Shown here piece after piece: positions 1,876 to 19,833 of a stretch of 64,000 bases of DNA (its first letter is position 1; each line of letters opens with the position of its first letter). This DNA is from an uncultured Clostridia bacterium (GTDB taxonomy: Bacteria; Bacillota; Clostridia; CAKSNL01; HGM11501). Made by a program: the position numbers and the translations under genes. Under the pieces are notes generated by a model, which did no database searches, had not been told where the DNA came from, and saw only the letters and a list, made by a program, of their open reading frames with translations. Where the stretch lies: the NCBI GenBank assembly GCA_934476235.1, contig CAKSNL010000003.1:206153-270152 (forward strand), written 5' to 3'.

Positions 1876-3851
1876 GGATAAAGGAATGTTACATTGAAAA
1901 TTTCGGAAAGCTTCATCAATATAAAAAGACTTTTTCCGATACTCTTGATGTCACCGTCTCCGATAACGGGTGGGGCAAAACCACATTCACGCTGTTTTTG
2001 AGGGCAATGCTTTTCGGCATGGAGTCAAAACGCGCGAAAAACAGTATACGCGAAAAATTCCGGCCGTGGCAGGGCGGCAAATACGGGGGATATATCGTTT
2101 TTGAGGCGAACGGTAAGAGCTACCGCGCCGAAAGGTATTTCAACGATACCGAAAGCAAGGACACTTTTACGCTCTACGACTGCGAAAACGGGATGATTTC
2201 GGACGATTATCCGGAAGATATCGGAGTAATGCTGCTTCATACGGACAGGGAAACCTTTGCAAAGACCGCGTACATTCCGCACGGCGGGGTGGAGGTCAGC
2301 TTTGAGAACGACGGCAAGATAATTTCAGCTCTTGAGAGCGGGGAAAGCTCCGGCGATAAGGATTATGACAGGGCGCACGCCGCGTTAATAAAAGCCGAAA
2401 CATACTACGAAAAGCGCGGCGGAGGGAAAATAGCCGATACGGAAAAAGAAATTTTCCGCCTTAAAGAAAAGCTTTCCGAGGCAGAGAAAAGCGCATCAAG
2501 GAAAGAGGAGCTTGAAAAGAAATTAAACAAGCTTTTAGCAGAATCTGAAGATATCAAAGCAAAGATAAATGATGAAAACAAAAAGCAGGGCGCAAATATT
2601 ATAAATGAGGATATCAGCCATTTCAGGCACAAAATAGCGCAAAATATATCAAAGCTTAAGTCCATCCCGACAAAGGAGGAGCTCATAACTCTTTCGGAGC
2701 TGACGGATAGCTTCAGAATGGCGCAAAGACTTGAGGACGAAAAGGAAAGCGCTTATGTTTCGCCCGAGGATAAGGAAAAGATAGCCAAGTTTTTAAAAAG
2801 GGACGGCGAAGCAAAAAACGGAAAATACAGATACTTTTCTGTCATTTTGCTTATAATTTCTCTGCTTTTCTTTGCGGCGGCGTTTATTAAGAGCATATAT
2901 CCGCTTGCCGTTTTGGGGGCACTTTTGCTCCTTGCTGCGATGTATTTTATTCTGGATATTCCTTATAAGAACCAAAGGAAAAGTCTGGAGCGTGAGGCGG
3001 ATATCCTGTCACAGGAGATAACCGGCAGGAGCGGAGATACAGGCTTGCTCAGGGAGCTCTATCATAGCGCAGATAAAAGAAAAACAGAGTTAAAGCTGAG
3101 AGCCGATGAGGCATACAGGGCACTTTCTGAATTTGCCGCACGTTTTTCTGATGCCGACCCGTGTGAGGCATACGTGTTTCTTAACAAAACACTTAATGAG
3201 ATCGAGTCTTGCAAGGAAAATATAGCGCGCTATGAAAAACGGCTCTCAGAGCTCGGGATTGATGTGGTTTATTCACCGGAAAAAACCGCATTACTCGGGG
3301 AGAGGGAGCGCGCTTTGGCAGATGAAATACTCGCGCTGCAAAGAGAGCTCATTTCAATTGAGGAGAAAAACTTAAATATTTCAGAGCTTAGATACGAATA
3401 TGAGAAAGAAAAGCACACCCTCCGAAGGCTGAAGGACGAATTTTTCATATTAAAGGAAGCGGAGCTTTCTCTCATCAAGGCAAAGGAGTCGCTTAAAAGC
3501 AGGTATTCAGGCAAGATAAGGGAGCTTTTTTCCGAATACATAAAAATGCTCTCGTCCCCTTGGGAGGCGGAGCTTGACTCGTCCTTAAAAGTAAACGTCC
3601 TCACCAACGGTGAAACGCACCCGTTTGACGATTTCAGCAGCGGAGAGCGCGATCTTTTCGGGCTTGCCTTAAGGTTCGCCGTGCTCGGAGCCATATATTC
3701 GTCGGAAACGCCGCCCGTAATATTAGACGACCCTTTGATAAATCTGGACGAGGGCAAAAGGGAGCGTGCACTTACGTTTATCAAAAAAATGTCAGCGCTC
3801 TACCAGATGATATATTTCACCTGCGACAGCAAAAGGGCGCCGGGTGAATAA
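1872..3851 (+). CDS. SbcC/Rad50-like AAA ATPase with central coiled-coil and a two-helix transmembrane hairpin (YhaN-like).
   Basis: N-terminal Walker A region (DNGWGKTTF). A long K/E-rich coiled coil. Hydrophobic stretch FSVILLIISLLFFAAAFIKSIYPLAVLGALLLLAAMYFIL. C-terminal signature/D-loop region (FSSGERDLFGLAL...VILDDPLINLD). Translationally coupled to the upstream phosphoesterase. Confidence 0.65.
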   Translation: MRIKECYIENFGKLHQYKKTFSDTLDVTVSDNGWGKTTFTLFLRAMLFGMESKRAKNSIREKFRPWQGGKYGGYIVFEANGKSYRAERYFNDTESKDTFTLYDCENGMISDDYPEDIGVMLLHTDRETFAKTAYIPHGGVEVSFENDGKIISALESGESSGDKDYDRAHAALIKAETYYEKRGGGKIADTEKEIFRLKEKLSEAEKSASRKEELEKKLNKLLAESEDIKAKINDENKKQGANIINEDISHFRHKIAQNISKLKSIPTKEELITLSELTDSFRMAQRLEDEKESAYVSPEDKEKIAKFLKRDGEAKNGKYRYFSVILLIISLLFFAAAFIKSIYPLAVLGALLLLAAMYFILDIPYKNQRKSLEREADILSQEITGRSGDTGLLRELYHSADKRKTELKLRADEAYRALSEFAARFSDADPCEAYVFLNKTLNEIESCKENIARYEKRLSELGIDVVYSPEKTALLGERERALADEILALQRELISIEEKNLNISELRYEYEKEKHTLRRLKDEFFILKEAELSLIKAKESLKSRYSGKIRELFSEYIKMLSSPWEAELDSSLKVNVLTNGETHPFDDFSSGERDLFGLALRFAVLGAIYSSETPPVILDDPLINLDEGKRERALTFIKKMSALYQMIYFTCDSKRAPGE

Positions 3852-3945
3852 CAAAAAAATGAAGAAATAAGGCACTTCAGTGCAAAAAAATTAAGGTAAT
3901 GCCTCCTTATATTGTGCTATAATGCAATATAAGGAGGTTGTTTTT

Positions 3946-6363
3946 ATGAAAAAAATATTATTAATTGCTTTATCCTTATTACTTATGTTTTCTTTGATAA
4001 CGGTTTCGTATGCCGCCGATACGGTATATAAAGCCGAGGATTCATGGAAAATTGAGGCAAGCAGCGACAAGGGAAATTCAATCGGGAAAGCGTTTGACGG
4101 CGACACGTCCACCTACTGGCACACTAATTACGAGAAAGGTTCGGACGGTAAGAACGTTATCGATCCGTGCCCGCACACCGTTACAGTGACATTCCCCGAG
4201 GCACTTGAAATTTCCGGCGTGAGATATGTTCCGAAGCAGAAAACTGAAAAGGATGCATCGGCTTCCGGCGCATGGAAAGCGGCTGACATCTATACATCTG
4301 CTGACGGCAAAAACTTTAAAAAGGCTGCAACACAGACTTTTGATATAGCCGGCACAAGAGAGACCGTTGACATTTCAATTGCGAAGGGCAAGTACAAGGC
4401 AATGAGAGTCGTTGTAACCGACGGTGTTAACGGCTATGCCACTGCTGCGGAGATAGGGTTTATAGGTTCGGGAGCCACCTCTTCCGGAACAAAGACCGAG
4501 ACAAAGACAGAAACGAAAACCGACACCAAAACCGAAACGAAAACCGAAACCAAAACGGAAACGACCGGCAATACCTTATTATCCGGCAATGCTTACGAAT
4601 ATGATATCTTGTGGAAGATTGAAGCAAGCAGCGACTTTGGTGAAACGGTGAACAGAGCGTTTGACGGCGACACGTCCACCTACTGGCACACCAATTACAA
4701 AAAAGGTGACGACGGAAAGAATATTATTGAGCCTTACCCGCATACCGTTACCGTAACATTCCCCGAGGCGCTTGAAATTTCGGGAGTAAGATATGTCCCG
4801 AAGCAGAAAACCGAAAAGGATGCATCGGCTTCCGGTACATGGAAATCGGCTGATATATACGGTTCGGCTGACGGCAAGGACTTTGAAAAGATTGGGTCCT
4901 CCACTTTTGATGTAGCTTCCGCGCGCGAGGCATGCGACATTAAGATCAAGGCGGGTAAGTACAAGGCAATGAGAGTCGTTGTAACCGACGGTGTCAACGG
5001 CTATGCCACCGCCGCGGAGATAGAGTTTATAAAGCCCGGCAACAGCTCCGCGGACAATACTAAGACGGACGATACCAAGAAAGAAGCGCTCAAGAGCATC
5101 ATAATGACGATTGATTCAGACTCGGCAGAGGTTCTGGGAAAAACCGTTAAGCTTGCAGCAGCTCCCGTTATCAGAGACGGAAGAACGCTTGTGCCCGTAA
5201 GATTTGTTTCGGAAAACCTCGGTTCAAACGTTGACTGGAATAACGATACGCGCGAGGTTACGATATCCGACGGGTCGAACAGAATTTCACTTAAGATCGA
5301 TTCTGACTCTGTCAGCGTAAACGGCGTTTCGTATAAGCTTGACGTTCCGGCAATGATAATCGGAAGCTCGACCATGGTTCCGATAAGATTTGTTTCCGAA
5401 AGCCTCGGAGCAAAAGTGGAATGGAACGGGGATAAAAAGGAGATAACTATCACAATGCCCTTGACGATTGCATGCTGGGGCGACAGCCTGACCTACGGAG
5501 ACGGTGCAACGATCTCGGCTTATCCGAAGGTTTTGGGAAAGCTCACCGGAGCAAAGGTCTATAACCTCGGCATCGGCGGAGAGACCGCTCTTACCATTGC
5601 GGCAAGACAGGGCGCATATGACATAGTATTTGGCTCGGATTTCACGATTCCGGAATCCGGAAGCGTGGAGCTTCCGCTTTCAAAGGAAGCTGACGGCAAT
5701 TTCCTTTTGACAGAAGGCGGAGGACATGTTTTCCCGAGGTCAACCAATGCAAAGTGGAATCCGTGCTACATAAACGGAGTTGAGGGAACCTTAAGCATTG
5801 ATGTTGACACGACAAAGTTCCCGCGCGTGTTAAACAGTGTTAAGTTTTCAAGAAAAGACTCCGGATCTGTTGTTGAGGTTAAAAAGGGCGATAGGCTCAT
5901 AACCTCCGCAAGCTATGTAAACGCAGACATAAATGTAATTTATATCGGCGTTAACGGATGCTGGAGCGAGGACAACCAGAACGGTAAAAACACCGTTGAA
6001 CAGTCCGCAAAGCTCATAGGCACAATCAAAAAAATGATAGAAAACACTCCCGATCCCGAAAAGTATCTTGTTATCGGATACACCATCGGCGAGAAGGACA
6101 GCTGGAATGTGCTTGACGCCGAAATGAAAAAAGCCTTCGGAGAACACTATGTTGACGCGAAAGCCGACCTTGTGAGCGAGGAAAGCTTAAAGGCAAAGGG
6201 CGTTACTCCCACAGAAAACGATAAAGCAGACATTGCAAAGGGTGCCGTTCCCGAATCGTTCAGAAAGAGTGCGACCGATAAGGTACATCTTAACGATCTG
6301 GGCTACACCGTTCTTGCGGAGGCTGTGAACAAAAAAATCACCGAGCTTGGATATATAAAATAA
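3946..6363 (+). CDS. Secreted multidomain SGNH/GDSL hydrolase with two F5/8 type C (discoidin) domains, a TKTETK linker, and two copper-amine-oxidase-N-terminal-like domains.
   Basis: AGGAGG RBS then ATG at 3946. Signal peptide MKKILLIALSLLLMFSLITVSYA. Two copies of FDGDTSTYWHTNY (F5/8 type C). Two copies of TLVPVRFVSE.LG..V.WN (CAO-N-like). GDSL block IACWGDSLTYG and C-terminal DKVHLND (D-x-x-H). Confidence 0.7.
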   Translation: MKKILLIALSLLLMFSLITVSYAADTVYKAEDSWKIEASSDKGNSIGKAFDGDTSTYWHTNYEKGSDGKNVIDPCPHTVTVTFPEALEISGVRYVPKQKTEKDASASGAWKAADIYTSADGKNFKKAATQTFDIAGTRETVDISIAKGKYKAMRVVVTDGVNGYATAAEIGFIGSGATSSGTKTETKTETKTDTKTETKTETKTETTGNTLLSGNAYEYDILWKIEASSDFGETVNRAFDGDTSTYWHTNYKKGDDGKNIIEPYPHTVTVTFPEALEISGVRYVPKQKTEKDASASGTWKSADIYGSADGKDFEKIGSSTFDVASAREACDIKIKAGKYKAMRVVVTDGVNGYATAAEIEFIKPGNSSADNTKTDDTKKEALKSIIMTIDSDSAEVLGKTVKLAAAPVIRDGRTLVPVRFVSENLGSNVDWNNDTREVTISDGSNRISLKIDSDSVSVNGVSYKLDVPAMIIGSSTMVPIRFVSESLGAKVEWNGDKKEITITMPLTIACWGDSLTYGDGATISAYPKVLGKLTGAKVYNLGIGGETALTIAARQGAYDIVFGSDFTIPESGSVELPLSKEADGNFLLTEGGGHVFPRSTNAKWNPCYINGVEGTLSIDVDTTKFPRVLNSVKFSRKDSGSVVEVKKGDRLITSASYVNADINVIYIGVNGCWSEDNQNGKNTVEQSAKLIGTIKKMIENTPDPEKYLVIGYTIGEKDSWNVLDAEMKKAFGEHYVDAKADLVSEESLKAKGVTPTENDKADIAKGAVPESFRKSATDKVHLNDLGYTVLAEAVNKKITELGYIK
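4489..4569 (+). repeat. Tandem ~18-nt (TKTETK) coding microsatellite inside the hydrolase gene.
   Basis: Protein stretch TKTETKTETKTDTKTETKTETKTETT. The DNA is an imperfect ac(a/c)ga(a/g)ac(a/c)aa period. Confidence 0.6.
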
Positions 6364-15404: not shown

Positions 15405-16054
15405 GCGTTTTAAATGTAAATCCGACGAGAATGGAGCTCACCAACCTAAAAAAGAAGCTGGCGGTTGCAAGAAAGGGGCACAAGCTCTTAAAGGATAAGC
15501 GCGACGAGATGATGCGCCGTTTTTTGGATATTGTTAAGGAAAACCACGCACTTCGCGGTGAGGTGGAAGAAATGCTCCTCACGGCGGAGAAAAAGGTAAT
15601 GCTTGCCAAGGCGGTAATGGGCGAAAAGACGCTCGCTTCGGCGCTGATGCTTCCGAAAAGCCGTGCTGCATTGGATATGGGCGAAAAAAATATAATGAGC
15701 GTCAGGATTCCGGAATTTAAGATTCCGGATAAAGGGCAAAATGTTCTGCCGTACGGTTTTGCATCCACTGCCGGAGAGCTTGACGAAGGAATTTTTGCAC
15801 TCGAGGAGTCAATGCCTAAGCTTATAAAGCTTGCAGAATCCGAGAATGCGATCGAGCTTTTGGCGTCGGAAATCGAAAAAACAAGGCGAAGAGTTAATGC
15901 CTTGGAGCATGTCATGATTCCGAATTATGAGGATACCATAAAGTACATCACGATGAAGCTTGACGAAAATGAGCGTTCAAATACCGCAAGGCTTATGAAG
16001 GTTAAGGACATGATGATTGAAGAGACCATTGAGGAAAAAAGAGCGGCACAGTAA
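15401..16054 (+). CDS. ntpD: V-type ATP synthase subunit D.
   Basis: 217 aa. Last gene of the operon. Overlapping start. Confidence 0.8.
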
Positions 16055-16077: not shown

Positions 16078-16113
16078 CAAAAACACTGTAACGATTACAG
16101 TGTTTTTGTTTTG
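16078..16113 (+). terminator. Rho-independent terminator ending the V-ATPase operon.
   Basis: aaacactgta-acgat-tacagtgttt followed by ttgtttt. Confidence 0.75.
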
Positions 16114-16541
16114 TGATTTAAAGCCCTCGAGAGCTAAAGGCGTAAGGAGAGACGCATCGGAAATGATTGAAAAATCCCTCAGAGTTTTCCTCCGGAAAAC
16201 CCACTTAAAACCGCCTTTGCGGTTTTAAGTGCGTGCGACAAAACCTTGAACGGTTTTTCGCACCTAACGGAAAAAGACCTTGTTGTCTTTTTTCGCCACG
16301 CCGTTTAGCAAGGGAGCCTTTAAATGCCCTCCTTGCTAAAGGTAGCGAAGCGGCGCCGAGGCAATGAATGACAGTCCAGTGGACTGTCAGAACCGAGGCG
16401 TGACCGAGCCGCAGCGAGACGGAAGAGCCGAAGGCGAAGGGAGGATTTTTCAGCGCGCCCACCGTATTCGCGGCAAACCCGTCCGGCACGGACTTTCGGC
16501 AGAGGGTGCCTCTGTGGTAAAATGGTTCCCGGGGTGAGAGA
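16114..16541. other. GC-rich noncoding block (~430 bp) with at least six consecutive stem-loops. Candidate structured RNA or element-boundary remnant.
   Basis: Hairpins read from the sequence include gagttttcc/ggaaaac, ttaaaaccgc-ctttg-cggttttaa, agcaagggag..ctccttgct and gacagtcc-agt-ggactgtc. The only ORF (minus strand, 123 aa) is low-complexity and implausible. Confidence 0.4.
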
Positions 16542-17375
16542 ATGTTTATCACAGAAGAAAAAATAAAAAATTTCAAAAACGACCTTATTAAACGCGAAAA
16601 GGAGAGGGCGACCGCAGAAAAATACGCCCGCGACGTGAGGCTTTTTGCCGAGTACCTTTCCGGGCTAAAGGTGACAAAGGAGCTCGCGGTCAGCTACAAA
16701 GAGCACCTCAAGGTAACCCGCGCACCAGCAAGCGTGAACGCCGCGGTTGCGGGGCTTAACTCATTTTTCGCGTTCTGCGGGAGGCACGATTTAAAGCTCA
16801 AGAGCCTTAAATTTTCCCGGAGCAGCTTTGCGGATAAAGAGCGGGAGATGACGGTATCAGAATACAACCGACTTTTGTCCGCCGCGAAGGAAAAGAGCGA
16901 GCGGCTATATCTGCTCATGCAGACGGCGTGCTCCTGCGGACTCAGAGTTTCCGAGATTCGCTTTATCACTTGCGAGGCGCTTATGCTGCGCCGCGCGACG
17001 GTCGCGCTAAAGGGCAGAGTCCGCACGGTGCTGCTCCCGGGAAAGCTCTGCAAAATGCTGATTAAGTATGCCAAAAAGAACAAAATAAAAAGCGGACCCG
17101 TGTTCATCATAAGAACAGGGAAACCGCTTGACAGGTTCTATATCTGGCGCTCCATGAAGGCACTTTGTAAAAAGGCGAATGTGTCCGAAAAGAAGGTGTT
17201 CCCGCACAACCTCCGCCATTTGTTTGCGCGGACGTACTACAAGGTGCATAAGGACTTACTGCGCCTTTCGGAGCTTTTAGGGCACGTGAGCATGAATACC
17301 ACGCGCATTTACACCGCGGAATCTTCGGAGATTCACCGCTCCAGAATCGAAATGCTCGGCTTTTTGCGGGAATAA
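16542..17375 (+). CDS. Tyrosine-type site-specific recombinase (XerC/D-like, 277 aa).
   Basis: Catalytic pattern GLRVSE (Arg), HNLRH (H-x-x-R) and TRIYT (Tyr). A GGGGTGAGAG RBS precedes the ATG. Confidence 0.8.
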   Translation: MFITEEKIKNFKNDLIKREKERATAEKYARDVRLFAEYLSGLKVTKELAVSYKEHLKVTRAPASVNAAVAGLNSFFAFCGRHDLKLKSLKFSRSSFADKEREMTVSEYNRLLSAAKEKSERLYLLMQTACSCGLRVSEIRFITCEALMLRRATVALKGRVRTVLLPGKLCKMLIKYAKKNKIKSGPVFIIRTGKPLDRFYIWRSMKALCKKANVSEKKVFPHNLRHLFARTYYKVHKDLLRLSELLGHVSMNTTRIYTAESSEIHRSRIEMLGFLRE

Positions 17376-17391
17376 AAGAAAAAAGCCACAT

Positions 17392-17408
17392 AATATACAT
17401 TACGTGGT
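17392..17408. repeat. Left copy of a 17-bp perfect inverted repeat (AATATACATTACGTGGT). Candidate recombinase crossover site (IR-L).
   Basis: Exact reverse complement of 17677-17693. Flanking CCAC/GTGG motifs are also shared. Confidence 0.7.
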
Positions 17409-17600
17409 CCAGAAAAAAATCAACAAGGATTTTTTTCGGACCGGTTTACGAAAAATATTCAAGTTTTTCGTAAACTGGGTATACAGGAGCCGGCAAACGC
17501 CGGGTCCGTTCATGCAAAAGACCACGAAAAATAGACCGATGAAAGCAATTTTTCATCATCGGTCTTAAAACCGTGCAAAAAAATATTTTTGCCGATAAAT

Positions 17601-17629
17601 ATTGACATACTTTTCCAAAAGTAGTATAA
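17601..17629 (+). promoter_or_regulatory. Consensus sigma-70 promoter (TTGACA-17 nt-TATAAT) inside the IR-bounded segment.
   Basis: ttgaca tacttttccaaaagtag tataat, read directly from the sequence. It points toward the gene at 17727. Confidence 0.65.
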
Positions 17630-17676
17630 TAAAAATACCCTAATTTCGCTTTTCGAGGAAAAGGGCTGGATGGTAT

Positions 17677-17693
17677 ACCACGTAATGTATATT
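17677..17693. repeat. Right copy of the 17-bp inverted repeat (IR-R).
   Basis: ACCACGTAATGTATATT is the reverse complement of 17392-17408. Confidence 0.7.
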
Positions 17694-17726
17694 CCGTGGT
17701 GAAAATTAATTTTTAGGAGGAAGAAA

Positions 17727-18626
17727 ATGTTCGACAAGATTGACAAGAACATTAAGGATTTTGCACAGGTTCTGTGTTGGGTCGGTGTAATTGCAAGCAT
17801 CATTTTGGCAATAGTAATGTTTGCAAAAGCAGGAGATTCATATTATACAGAAGGATTGTTTACGAGTTTGGGATTTATTTTCTTAATAGTAGGACCGATT
17901 ATATCAATAATAAACGGAATGCTCGTGTATGGATTCGGTGAGTTAATAGAAAAAGTAATGTCAATTGATACAAAATTGAAAAAAAATAAGGGAAACAGAG
18001 TATATAATCCAAACAGTACGGTGAAATTTGACTGCTATCACGGTGCGATTGAATGGCTGGTTCTTGATAAAAAGGACGATAAGGCACTTTTGATCAGTAA
18101 ATACTGTTTAGATGCGAACGCATACGATAAAAATGAGGAAAATGAATCTGTCACGTGGGAAACCTCAACACTTCGTCAGTGGCTTAACGGTGAATTTATA
18201 AATGAAGCATTTACCGAAAAAGAGAAAACTCTGATATGCGACACACATTTGAAAAATCCCAATAATCCCAAATACGGCACCGATGGAGGAAACGATACGA
18301 CGGATAAAGTGTTCCTCCTGAGTATTGATGAGGTAGAAAAGTATTTTGCAAACGGAGAGAAAAGAAAAGCGGAAGCAACGGGGTATGCGAAATATAAAGG
18401 AATTTGTGTATCGGAAGAAAACGGCAATGTTTGGTGGTGGCTGCGGTCGCCCGGGAGCAATAGTAGAGACGCTGTCTATGTGGACCTTGATGGATCCGTC
18501 CGCTATTACGGAAGCCATATGGACGACGAAGAGGGTGGTGTTCGTCCTGCAATGTGGGTGAAGATAGAAGAATGGGGAGAAAAAAATAGCGGTGTGAGTC
18601 GGCATAATATTGTGTGCAATTCATGA
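17727..18626 (+). CDS. Membrane-anchored protein of unknown function (two N-terminal TM helices plus an extracytoplasmic domain with WWLRSPG / GVRPAMWV motifs, DUF6273-like).
   Basis: AGGAGG RBS. Hydrophobic N-terminus. GC content is markedly below that of the flanking genes. Confidence 0.55.
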   Translation: MFDKIDKNIKDFAQVLCWVGVIASIILAIVMFAKAGDSYYTEGLFTSLGFIFLIVGPIISIINGMLVYGFGELIEKVMSIDTKLKKNKGNRVYNPNSTVKFDCYHGAIEWLVLDKKDDKALLISKYCLDANAYDKNEENESVTWETSTLRQWLNGEFINEAFTEKEKTLICDTHLKNPNNPKYGTDGGNDTTDKVFLLSIDEVEKYFANGEKRKAEATGYAKYKGICVSEENGNVWWWLRSPGSNSRDAVYVDLDGSVRYYGSHMDDEEGGVRPAMWVKIEEWGEKNSGVSRHNIVCNS

Positions 18627-18640
18627 ATCATCTTTGCGAT

Positions 18641-18680
18641 AAAACAAAAAAAACTCTGTAATTATTACAGAGTTTTTTAT
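18641..18680. terminator. Bidirectional rho-independent terminator.
   Basis: A-run, then aaactctgtaat-t-attacagagttt, then T-run. It lies between convergent genes. Confidence 0.75.
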
Positions 18681-18688
18681 TACGGAGT

Positions 18689-19732
18689 TTACTTTTCCGG
18701 GAGCTCGCGGCTTCGCATGATCTCTTTTTTTGCCTTGGAGCTATACTGAGCGTAAAATTTATGCGTTACCTCAATATTTTTATGCCCCATAAGCTCGGCA
18801 ACCATTTTAATGTCCACGCCTTCTTCTAAAAGGGTGCAGGCAAACGTTCTCCTCAGGGCATGGGGTCTGGTTTTATCCTTATTTGTTATCCCGGCGGCAA
18901 GGCAGTATGTTTTTAAGTTATGTTCCACGCTTGAAATGGTGAGCCTGTCGCCGTTTCTTGAAACAAATAGGGCAGAGGTGCCGTAATTTTGCTCCTTGCG
19001 CCATTCAAGATACTCCAAAAGTTCATTTTCGACCTGAACCGGCATGAATATTTCGTCCTCATTTCCGCCTTTTCGGGTAACGGTGAACGACGACGTTTCA
19101 AAATCAATATCCGATATGTCAAGATTTACCAGCTCCGAAACGCGAACACCTGTTCCCAAATAGGTGAGATAAAGCGCAATATCGCGCTTTTTTCGGTTCA
19201 GATACTCTATCAGAAGGCGACCTTTAAAGTATTTTTCGCCGTTTAATATAACATCCATCAGCCGCATGGTTTCCTGCAGGGTGAGGGGTTTCTTGATTTT
19301 CTGAACAAGCTTGTTCATATCAACCTTAAGCGTGACATTCTGCGAAATTTTATCAGTTTTATAAAGATACGAAAAAAGACTTCTGAGCGACGACATTTTA
19401 CGGTTGATTCCGAAGGATGAATTCCTGTGAGTACGGCTGTAGGATTCACCGTCAGAATCGGTATATGTAAGCGTGTATTGCTTTAAGTAGGATTTGTATT
19501 CCAATAGATCGTCAACACAAATCTGTTCCATGTCATTTTCGGAAAACTCTTCAACAGTGTCGTACGGGAACTTGCCGGACACCAAAAGGAAGTTTAAAAA
19601 GATTTTTATATCGAGAGCAAATGCAAGCTGAGTATTAACGGATTCGCCGTCATAATAATAATCAATGAATCTGAATACAAAGTCGGGAAGCTCTGCCAGG
19701 TAATTTCTCAGTGTGTTTTGCTTATCAGTCAT
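18689..19732 (-). CDS. Tyrosine-type integrase/recombinase (phage-integrase family, 347 aa).
   Basis: C-terminal HALRRTFA...MGHKNIEVTHKFY catalytic region. Low GC. Confidence 0.8.
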   Translation of the reverse strand: MTDKQNTLRNYLAELPDFVFRFIDYYYDGESVNTQLAFALDIKIFLNFLLVSGKFPYDTVEEFSENDMEQICVDDLLEYKSYLKQYTLTYTDSDGESYSRTHRNSSFGINRKMSSLRSLFSYLYKTDKISQNVTLKVDMNKLVQKIKKPLTLQETMRLMDVILNGEKYFKGRLLIEYLNRKKRDIALYLTYLGTGVRVSELVNLDISDIDFETSSFTVTRKGGNEDEIFMPVQVENELLEYLEWRKEQNYGTSALFVSRNGDRLTISSVEHNLKTYCLAAGITNKDKTRPHALRRTFACTLLEEGVDIKMVAELMGHKNIEVTHKFYAQYSSKAKKEIMRSRELPEK

Positions 19733-19833
19733 AAAAACCCTCCTTCCGTTATAAAAGAATATTCCAATTCAGATAAATAGTTATTTATCTGAAAATAATC
19801 ACATTAAACCCTTTATATTCCCCGGCTTGTATT

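Follow-up and report, generated by a model that had tools for sequence, protein, structure and literature searches.

A probable invertible promoter beside a tyrosine recombinase gene in an uncultured gut Clostridia bacterium

The stretch of DNA analyzed here, 64,000 nucleotides of contig CAKSNL010000003.1 from an uncultured Clostridia bacterium (hereafter the window), carries a short segment bounded by inverted repeats, located between a gene for a 277-aa tyrosine recombinase and a gene for a DUF6273 protein. This segment is very probably an invertible promoter (i.e. a phase-variation switch, or inverton) run by the adjacent recombinase. Such a switch had been proposed in an earlier reading made from the letters of the window alone (the sequence-only reading), and the proposal was borne out by comparison with related loci, denoted by L numbers: the layout recurs in nearly all of the relatives surveyed, both orientations occur within the family, two relatives (L074 and L079) differ by an exact inversion, and the window segment is inverted with respect to its closest relatives. 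Sequence comparison places homologous segments in both orientations with exact boundaries, and adds to this the anatomy of the sites, their linkage to one recombinase family and an internal promoter.

The features that make up the predicted switch are as follows.

16542–17375, plus strand: gene for a tyrosine recombinase, 277 aa, the presumed invertase (PF00589, E = 8e-26)
17376–17407, minus strand: terminator-like site (17407–17386), the palindrome of the left inverted repeat followed by CTTTTTTCTT (−10.1 kcal/mol, z = −4.1)
17386–17408, unstranded: left core site (IR-L), CCACATAAT-ATAC-ATTACGTGG at 17386–17407, plus T; asymmetric 4-bp centre at 17395–17398
17409–17676, unstranded: segment interior, 268 nt; the inner part matches relatives on the minus strand although their flanks match on the plus strand
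17522–17565, minus strand: hairpin AGACCGATGA...TCATCGGTCT (17533–17565), then ATTTTTCGTGG on the minus strand (T-tract, 17522–17532)
17602–17630, plus strand: predicted SigA/sigma-70 promoter, TTGACA-17-TATAAT, 12/12 match to consensus, in the ON orientation
17677–17699, unstranded: right core site (IR-R), A, then CCACGTAAT-GTAT-ATTCCGTGG at 17678–17699; centre at 17687–17690
17700–17726, plus strand: leader with a ribosome-binding site (RBS), AGGAGG at 17715–17720, near-identical in the window, L003, L005 and L008
17727–18626, plus strand: switched gene, 299 aa, two N-terminal hydrophobic helices and a DUF6273 domain (PF19789, E = 7e-36)

In the proposed mechanism, the 277-aa Xer-like recombinase would bind the 22-bp core sites at 17386–17407 and 17678–17699, and strand exchange within their opposed 4-bp centres would invert a segment of ∼290 bp. 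In the ON state, as found in the window, the promoter would read through IR-R and the conserved leader into the gene for a membrane-anchored, lectin-like DUF6273 protein. In the OFF (inverted) state it would face the 3′ end of the recombinase gene, where the IR-L palindrome and its T-run form a putative terminator, and the internal hairpin, now on the plus strand, would keep transcripts of the recombinase gene from running on into the target gene.

Inverted repeats and core sites

The 17-mer AATATACATTACGTGGT lies at 17392–17408 and its perfect reverse complement at 17677–17693, as the sequence-only reading had it. The arms reach 23 nt with two mismatches (91% identity; 17386–17408 and 17677–17699) and are separated by 268 nt. 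When up to three mismatches were allowed, 0.07 matches to the 17-mer were expected in the shuffled window and three were found, the third being the right-arm palindrome overlapping itself; a chance origin of the repeat is therefore excluded. No further copies of the 17-mer were present in the 64-kb window. In a scan of all 64 kb, the switch repeat ranked top among spaced inverted repeats, and the remaining repeats of at least 16 nt were tight hairpins, with the exception of one imperfect pair within a coding region.

The repeats had been described as simple 17-mers. The perfect match stands, but the sites are composite: each arm is near-palindromic, with 9-bp inverted half-sites (CCACnTAAT) flanking a 4-bp asymmetric centre, 22 bp overall, and the CCAC/GTGG motifs that had been noted at the flanks are the outer ends of these half-sites. 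Judged by its letters, this layout is that of a tyrosine-recombinase core site. The right centre, GTAT, is the reverse complement of the left centre, ATAC; with the two centres oppositely oriented, inversion rather than deletion is predicted. Crossover is presumed to fall within the 4-bp centres, giving a flipped unit of ∼292 bp from centre to centre.

The segment between the sites is noncoding, with no credible open reading frame (ORF). Its promoter is directed through IR-R, which begins 46 nt past the −10 box, towards the DUF6273 gene, and is predicted to serve that gene in one orientation only. The hairpin at 17533–17565 lies ∼37 nt behind the −35 box, and the 81-nt stretch containing it folds at −23.6 kcal/mol (z = −3.0). 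It looks like a terminator and, once inverted, would stand on the plus strand between the recombinase and DUF6273 genes. The same hairpin is so placed in the OFF-oriented relatives L003 and L005, where AAGACCGATGA...TCATCGGTCTT followed by CTTTTCGTGG lies on the plus strand between recombinase and target gene, in agreement with the earlier claim that the OFF state sets a terminator between upstream transcripts and the gene. Likewise, since the IR-L palindrome precedes CTTTTTTCTT on the minus strand, it appears placed to halt the OFF-oriented promoter before the recombinase gene. Positions given in the sequence-only reading needed slight correction: the promoter had been set one base too early (17601–17629), although present and facing the gene, and the minus-strand hairpin had been drawn at 17525–17560. 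Its account of the downstream gene, a membrane DUF protein equipped with an RBS, agrees with the AGGAGG, the ATG at 17727, the PF19789 match and the two hydrophobic helices listed above.

The adjacent recombinase

The recombinase gene adjoins the left repeat, as had been reported, with a gap of 16 nt (rather than 17 bp) to the 17-mer and of 10 nt to the 23-nt arm. All catalytic residues (R135, K157, H222, R225, H248 and Y257) are intact and invariant in the family alignment. The closest solved structure is the XerC-like 4a8e. Against NCBIfam the enzyme is Xer-like, yet falls below every cut-off: 118 bits versus an equivalog cut-off of 220 for XerA, 105 versus 330 for XerD, 95 versus 335 for XerC, and 53 versus 267 for XerS. 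Identity as a XerC, XerD, XerA or XerS dimer resolvase was rejected on these scores, and the enzyme is Xer-like in fold only. A phage or plasmid origin was also considered and rejected, as matches of that kind were only distant (38–46% identity); they lay on large secondary replicons of cultured Oscillospiraceae, Monoglobus and Sebaldella, and on two unannotated phage-bin contigs.

A family of switches

Among the candidates scored, recombinase relatives at E ≤ 1e-20 made up 7511 clusters. The family scan drew on a single genome per species and gave at least 587 loci that encode recombinase relatives; 80 of them were kept, and paired-site counts rest on the 71 of these 80 with at least 350 nt after the recombinase gene. 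All 80 derive from uncultured gut Clostridia, Oscillospiraceae or Eubacteriales of human and herbivore hosts. Inverted site pairs near recombinase genes in other genomes had been named beforehand as a check on the switch, and 68 of the 71 relatives carry them: a perfect inverted repeat of at least 14 nt follows the recombinase gene, with arms 150–430 nt apart. The repeat starts no more than ∼100 nt past the gene and usually within ∼50 nt; repeats measure 15–32 nt and inner segments mostly 190–280 nt.

The consensus CCACATAAT-N4-ATTATGTGG fits 131 of 142 sites, and the outer site positions, left free by the search pattern, are nearly invariant as well. Across the family 33 different 4-nt centres occur, none of them palindromic, and the two centres of a locus match in inverted orientation in all 63 loci that could be parsed. 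Site pairs in direct orientation were found in none of the surveyed loci. A scan of metagenome contigs for the 17-mer AATATACATTACGTRGT returned 65 matches, which we attribute to chance because they were single and none was related to the locus by BLAST.

A promoter matching at least 10/12 consensus positions lies inside 62 of the 68 segments (65 of 71 when the window, L003 and L005 are added), with a median distance of 35 nt to the nearer repeat. Among those 62, it points toward the downstream gene in 14 and toward the recombinase in 48. The first downstream genes encode cohesin, SLH, BspA-LRR, Listeria-Bacteroides-repeat, SPFH/zinc-ribbon and DUF6273 proteins, and 15 of 50 encode TetR regulators; such surface proteins and TetR regulators are typical phase-variable cargo.

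Several further observations were made on these loci. Many switches drive a TetR regulator of ∼187 aa (L013, L014, L016, L017, L033, L035, L044, L050 and others), and operator-like TGTAAYGnnCRTTACA palindromes precede these TetR genes, which suggests that phase variation is relayed via a repressor to further genes. A third, tandem core site ∼33 nt from the right or left repeat occurs in L012, L019–L023, L031, L033, L035 and L050, and further off in L044 and L067; with it, inversion could have more than one end point. A third site of this kind is absent from the window. The three of 71 loci without a pair (L075, L080 and L084) are single-site: L075 has a promoter and one core site, apparently locked ON, and L080 and L084 have one core site and no invertible segment. 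These three look like decayed switches.

Among cultured organisms, Monoglobus pectinilyticus encodes an enzyme 42% identical to that of the window and keeps the same core. Pusillibacter faecalis pMM59_01 (L156), from a cultured isolate, encodes a recombinase 46% identical to the window's and has a different repeat at 3327–3646, the unrelated 26-nt inverted repeat TCCTATAGACAAAAACAACATTTCGT with 268 nt between its arms, a tandem extra copy and an S-layer-homology gene further downstream; it may represent a sister subfamily with a different site.

Orientation among relatives

L074 and L079 come from different samples. Their flanks are collinear and 99.7% and 99.8% identical, and their inner 247 nt are 99.6% identical and reversed, such that the two loci differ only by an exact inversion between the repeats. 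Because the 27-nt repeat is shorter than the assembler k-mer (141), the orientations reflect reads rather than an assembly choice. The window itself was compared with L003 and L008: the recombinase gene (77% identity) and the DUF6273 gene (85%) align on the plus strand, and the inner segment aligns on the minus strand at 87–88% over 117 nt. In L002 (recombinase 96% identical) and L153 (94%), the promoter end of the segment lies beside IR-L, opposite to the window. Both segment orientations occur across the family; within its own subfamily, the window is the sole ON copy, with L002–L005, L008, L153–L155 and L158–L168 all OFF.

These comparisons also bear on the notion that the repeats are terminal inverted repeats resembling those of miniature inverted-repeat transposable elements (MITEs), or merely palindromic terminators or operators, with no programmed inversion. 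Each arm does fold as a hairpin, IR-L with its T-run is terminator-like, and the whole module is found in different genomic contexts. We nevertheless give this explanation almost no credence, as the repeats always stand at a fixed place after one recombinase family, have core-site anatomy with locus-specific matched centres, and have no other 17-mer copy in the window, while L074 and L079 differ by an exact inversion, neither an insertion nor an excision.

Several results weigh against an invertible promoter that is active in the window organism. That the 277-aa enzyme is the catalyst, that the promoter and terminators are active and that the strain still switches are all inferred. Only about three contigs on record carry proteins of the window species; two of these were read, and they represent one collapsed place, identical to the window and ON. 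A single identical assembly, in the same ON orientation, came back from each exact-protein look-up (recombinase, DUF6273 protein, V-ATPase subunit D), and a look-up of the 347-aa recombinase encoded downstream of the target gene returned no record. All 14 assemblies of the sister lineage (L003, L004, L008 and L158–L168) are OFF, including all 11 new contigs (L158–L168) obtained from DUF6273-orthologue look-ups that sought an ON copy; within-lineage switching was therefore not caught in consensus assemblies. Contigs that end inside or at the switch (L002, L004, L036, L043, L083 and others) are weak evidence, because paralogous modules with >90% identical segments also break assemblies, and contig breaks were accordingly downgraded as a sign of mixed orientation. 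Lastly, the outer half-site of IR-R, CCACGGAAT, is two positions off consensus, and the palindrome AGACCRRT...AYYGGTCT, found in 37 of 65 family segments and mostly 37–62 nt upstream of the −35 box, has no T-run on the expected side in many relatives, although some subfamilies have one. The sequence of this palindrome is itself conserved, beyond pairing; with the sequence kept and the T-run missing in many relatives, the conserved hairpin may be a protein-binding site, besides or instead of a terminator.

Some of these results would also fit a locked or decaying switch, i.e. a family that inverts and a window copy fixed ON as an ordinary constitutive promoter. The two same-species contigs that are ON and identical, the off-consensus half-site of IR-R and the degenerate relatives with a single site or no segment (L075, L080 and L084) are in its favor. 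On the other side, the recombinase is intact with all catalytic residues present; the 17 bp covering the centre and inner half-sites are perfect at both arms, with centres correctly inverted; half-site positions 5–6 vary alike in sister loci that retain the paired-site layout; and two identical contigs, possibly from one strain, tell little of population heterogeneity. On balance, we regard a locked switch as unlikely and favor a promoter that can still invert.

Two observations on individual assemblies stand apart. L161, L166 and L168 are independent assemblies from different assemblers that start at the same base, 6 nt inside the segment by the right repeat and not at the boundary of the repeat itself; a simple inversion-branch model and a paralogue-branch model both fail to explain this shared start. 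In L153 (ENA ERZ1749213; 1825 nt, coverage 1.1), the 3′ ends of two different recombinase genes converge on the switch and the site centres are unequal (ATAC and ATAT); this contig either is chimeric, assembled from two paralogous modules, or arose by recombination between modules.

Comparison with known systems

The fimS switch of Escherichia coli, with FimB and FimE, resembles the window in having an invertible segment of ∼300 bp, short inverted repeats, one promoter reading into a surface-structure gene, and an adjacent tyrosine recombinase. The window, however, has one adjacent enzyme rather than two, and a FimB/FimE-type identity was rejected for it (26.9 and 23.7 bits versus cut-offs of 221 and 222 for NF007370 and NF007371). 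Its repeats are 22-bp palindromic core sites, whereas the fim repeats are 9 bp, and accessory IHF or Lrp sites were not identified at the window switch.

Invertible promoters of Bacteroides (polysaccharide loci and Mpi; Tsr tyrosine recombinases) are similar to the window family in that they belong to gut commensals, drive surface molecules and regulators, and occur as many promoter invertons per genome. They differ in phylum, promoter consensus and repeat motifs. Mpi is a serine recombinase that acts globally, whereas the window enzyme is a PF00589 tyrosine recombinase dedicated to the adjacent switch. A serine-invertase switch (Hin/Gin or Bacteroides Mpi) was rejected, as both recombinases that neighbor the segment are PF00589 tyrosine enzymes. 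At the level of the sites, Cre/loxP and Xer/dif offer the same inverted binding arms and an asymmetric centre that matches between partners and sets direction, and Xer a similar enzyme; in the window, however, the role is promoter inversion, not dimer resolution or excision. With an apparent variable centre of just 4 bp, flanking A/T pairs probably belong to the true overlap as well.

In Clostridioides difficile, the RecV switches (cwpV/Cdi1, flagellar/Cdi4 and cmr) are short intergenic elements with ON/OFF control that involves termination (PMC5903667, PMC7446863). They share with the window a Clostridia host, a tyrosine recombinase and a short invertible element upstream of surface or signalling genes. 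RecV, compared here with the window enzyme by description, works on several switches with unrelated repeats from a gene located apart from them; in the window family, by contrast, every switch lies directly downstream of a recombinase gene of its own, and one core-site consensus holds family-wide.

The closest published description is ‘inverton group 139’ with ‘invertase group 35’ of the hCom2 gut community, in which 32 of 33 invertons are from Clostridia, representing 17 strains (PMC11892184). Nearly all of its members adjoin a tyrosine recombinase, the example repeats measure 14–26 nt with 206–228 nt between them, and flipping of members was seen in culture read data (PMC11892184). Compared by taxa, tyrosine-recombinase adjacency and dimensions, the group and the window family agree, and the two are probably related; the window organism is an uncultured species outside the hCom2 community. 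The type of mechanism is already known, and what the survey adds is family size, regularity and a defined core site.

Module limits and portability

Homology between copies extends over ∼2.1 kb, from ∼60 nt upstream of the recombinase ATG through the terminator after the DUF6273 gene, at 90% identity between the L158 and L003 modules. The promoter of the recombinase gene and the closing terminator are as follows.

16496–16523, plus strand: predicted recombinase-gene promoter, TCGGCA-16-TAAAAT with TG extension, 9/12 match, within the block conserved between modules (activity inferred)
18648–18678, unstranded: bidirectional terminator hairpin closing the 2.1-kb module, with conserved counterparts at the same end in L003 and L158

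Conservation among the window, L002, L003, L005 and L154 sets in ∼100 nt upstream of the recombinase ATG and includes the motif TGTGRTAAAAT. The 2.1-kb module was found in three contexts: between a V-ATPase operon and an XerS-like recombinase with a rhamnosidase (the window), with GT8 and 2-hydroxyacid dehydrogenase genes, and with ClpP and MFS transporter genes. A shorter block, from recombinase promoter to RBS, recurs before unrelated genes (L005 and L154), and the leader is shared even with a different target gene (L005 5081–5132 is 92% identical to window 17676–17727). From these alignments the cassette has evidently been duplicated or moved; no mechanism for its duplication or movement was found.

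These data allow a broader suggestion, which we advance tentatively and consider rather less than an even bet: that the module is a self-contained, portable phase-variation cassette, copied to positions before unrelated genes in hundreds of species of uncultured gut Clostridia. It would comprise a promoter of its own, the invertase, two core sites with the terminator/promoter segment between them, and the leader with RBS; its targets would be surface adhesins, S-layer and cohesin proteins, and TetR regulators. Any enzyme of the family could bind the near-invariant 9-bp arms, and the locus-specific, never-palindromic 4-bp centre would serve as an address barring recombination between paralogous switches of one genome. 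Under the same suggestion, AGACCRRT...AYYGGTCT would be a putative binding site for an accessory factor that sets switching bias.

The switched gene and neighboring features

Proteins with DUF6273 have a C-type-lectin-like fold, and the domain is known from receptor-binding proteins of phages and from an IgA protease of the gut (PMC10743442, PMC12402451). By its domain and helices, the 17727–18626 product is likely a membrane-anchored lectin-like protein. A DUF6273 target diversified by a diversity-generating retroelement (DGR) was considered and rejected, as no stretch of 17727–18626 recurred elsewhere in the window by self-BLAST, which leaves the window without a template repeat.

Two further features lie within or beside the switch.

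17441–17478, unstranded: palindrome with 15-nt arms, CCGGTTTACGAAAAA / TTTTTCGTAAACTGG (93%)
18689–19732, minus strand: second tyrosine recombinase gene, 347 aa, convergent (XerS-like, 153.6 bits versus a cut-off of 267)

The palindrome at 17441–17478 has no T-run at either side; it is present in L153 and missing from the shorter, 217-nt segments of the sister-lineage L003 and L005. At gathering thresholds Rfam gave no match in or near the switch, with otherwise only sub-threshold noise, and the ON-state leader showed no unusual structure (z = +0.5).

The second tyrosine recombinase had been recognized in the sequence-only reading as a convergent integrase just downstream. Its position is right, but it is not conserved with the module. 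The possibility that this enzyme performs the inversion, alone or jointly with the first, draws on its gene lying only 63 nt beyond the target gene, and on two-recombinase switches such as FimB/FimE. It is, however, 26% identical to the 277-aa enzyme, its gene is not found in the homologous modules L003, L008, L158 and L164, and the sites are linked to the 277-aa enzyme in 68 of 71 loci. As far as these alignments indicate, it belongs to a different Xer-like group and is no conserved part of the switch module; a role for it in the inversion is highly improbable, and the 277-aa enzyme remains our candidate invertase. A palindrome of 12+12 nt (TTCAGATAAATA-GT-TATTTATCTGAA, 19767–19792) lies in the 100-nt gap just upstream of the second recombinase start and could be that enzyme's own site or an operator.

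Upstream of the 277-aa recombinase gene, a V-type ATPase operon ends at 16054, and the stretch 16111–16540 is noncoding and rich in hairpins. Parts of this stretch occur near other modules (L003 6127–6274 is ∼80% identical to 16173–16324; L158 2955–3074 is 93% identical to ∼16204–16324; L154 2704–2799 is 83% identical to 16330–16422), and another assembly of the same strain breaks within it, one scaffold ending at 16373 and the next starting at 16397. Possibly the stretch is a repeat of the REP or MITE kind. Elsewhere in the window, a 420-nt direct repeat with 80% identity (4045–4464 and 4612–5031) lies inside an 813-aa ORF (3922–6363) and is probably a duplicated domain.

Significance

The window provides a concrete, testable case of a lectin-like membrane protein under ON/OFF control, from a lineage of uncultured gut Clostridia. 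In such organisms phase variation is far less charted than in Bacteroides or C. difficile, and the family of switches described here is large and barely described. Its signature, an Xer-like recombinase of ∼278 aa followed by an inverted CCACATAAT-N4-ATTATGTGG pair within ∼300 bp and a consensus promoter inside, flags hundreds of switches in metagenome-assembled genomes and may account for some recurrent contig breaks. The compact enzyme/site pairs, with their variable 4-bp centres, could serve as orthogonal genetic switches. For the organisms themselves, the signature predicts heterogeneous expression of surface proteins and of TetR-headed operons.

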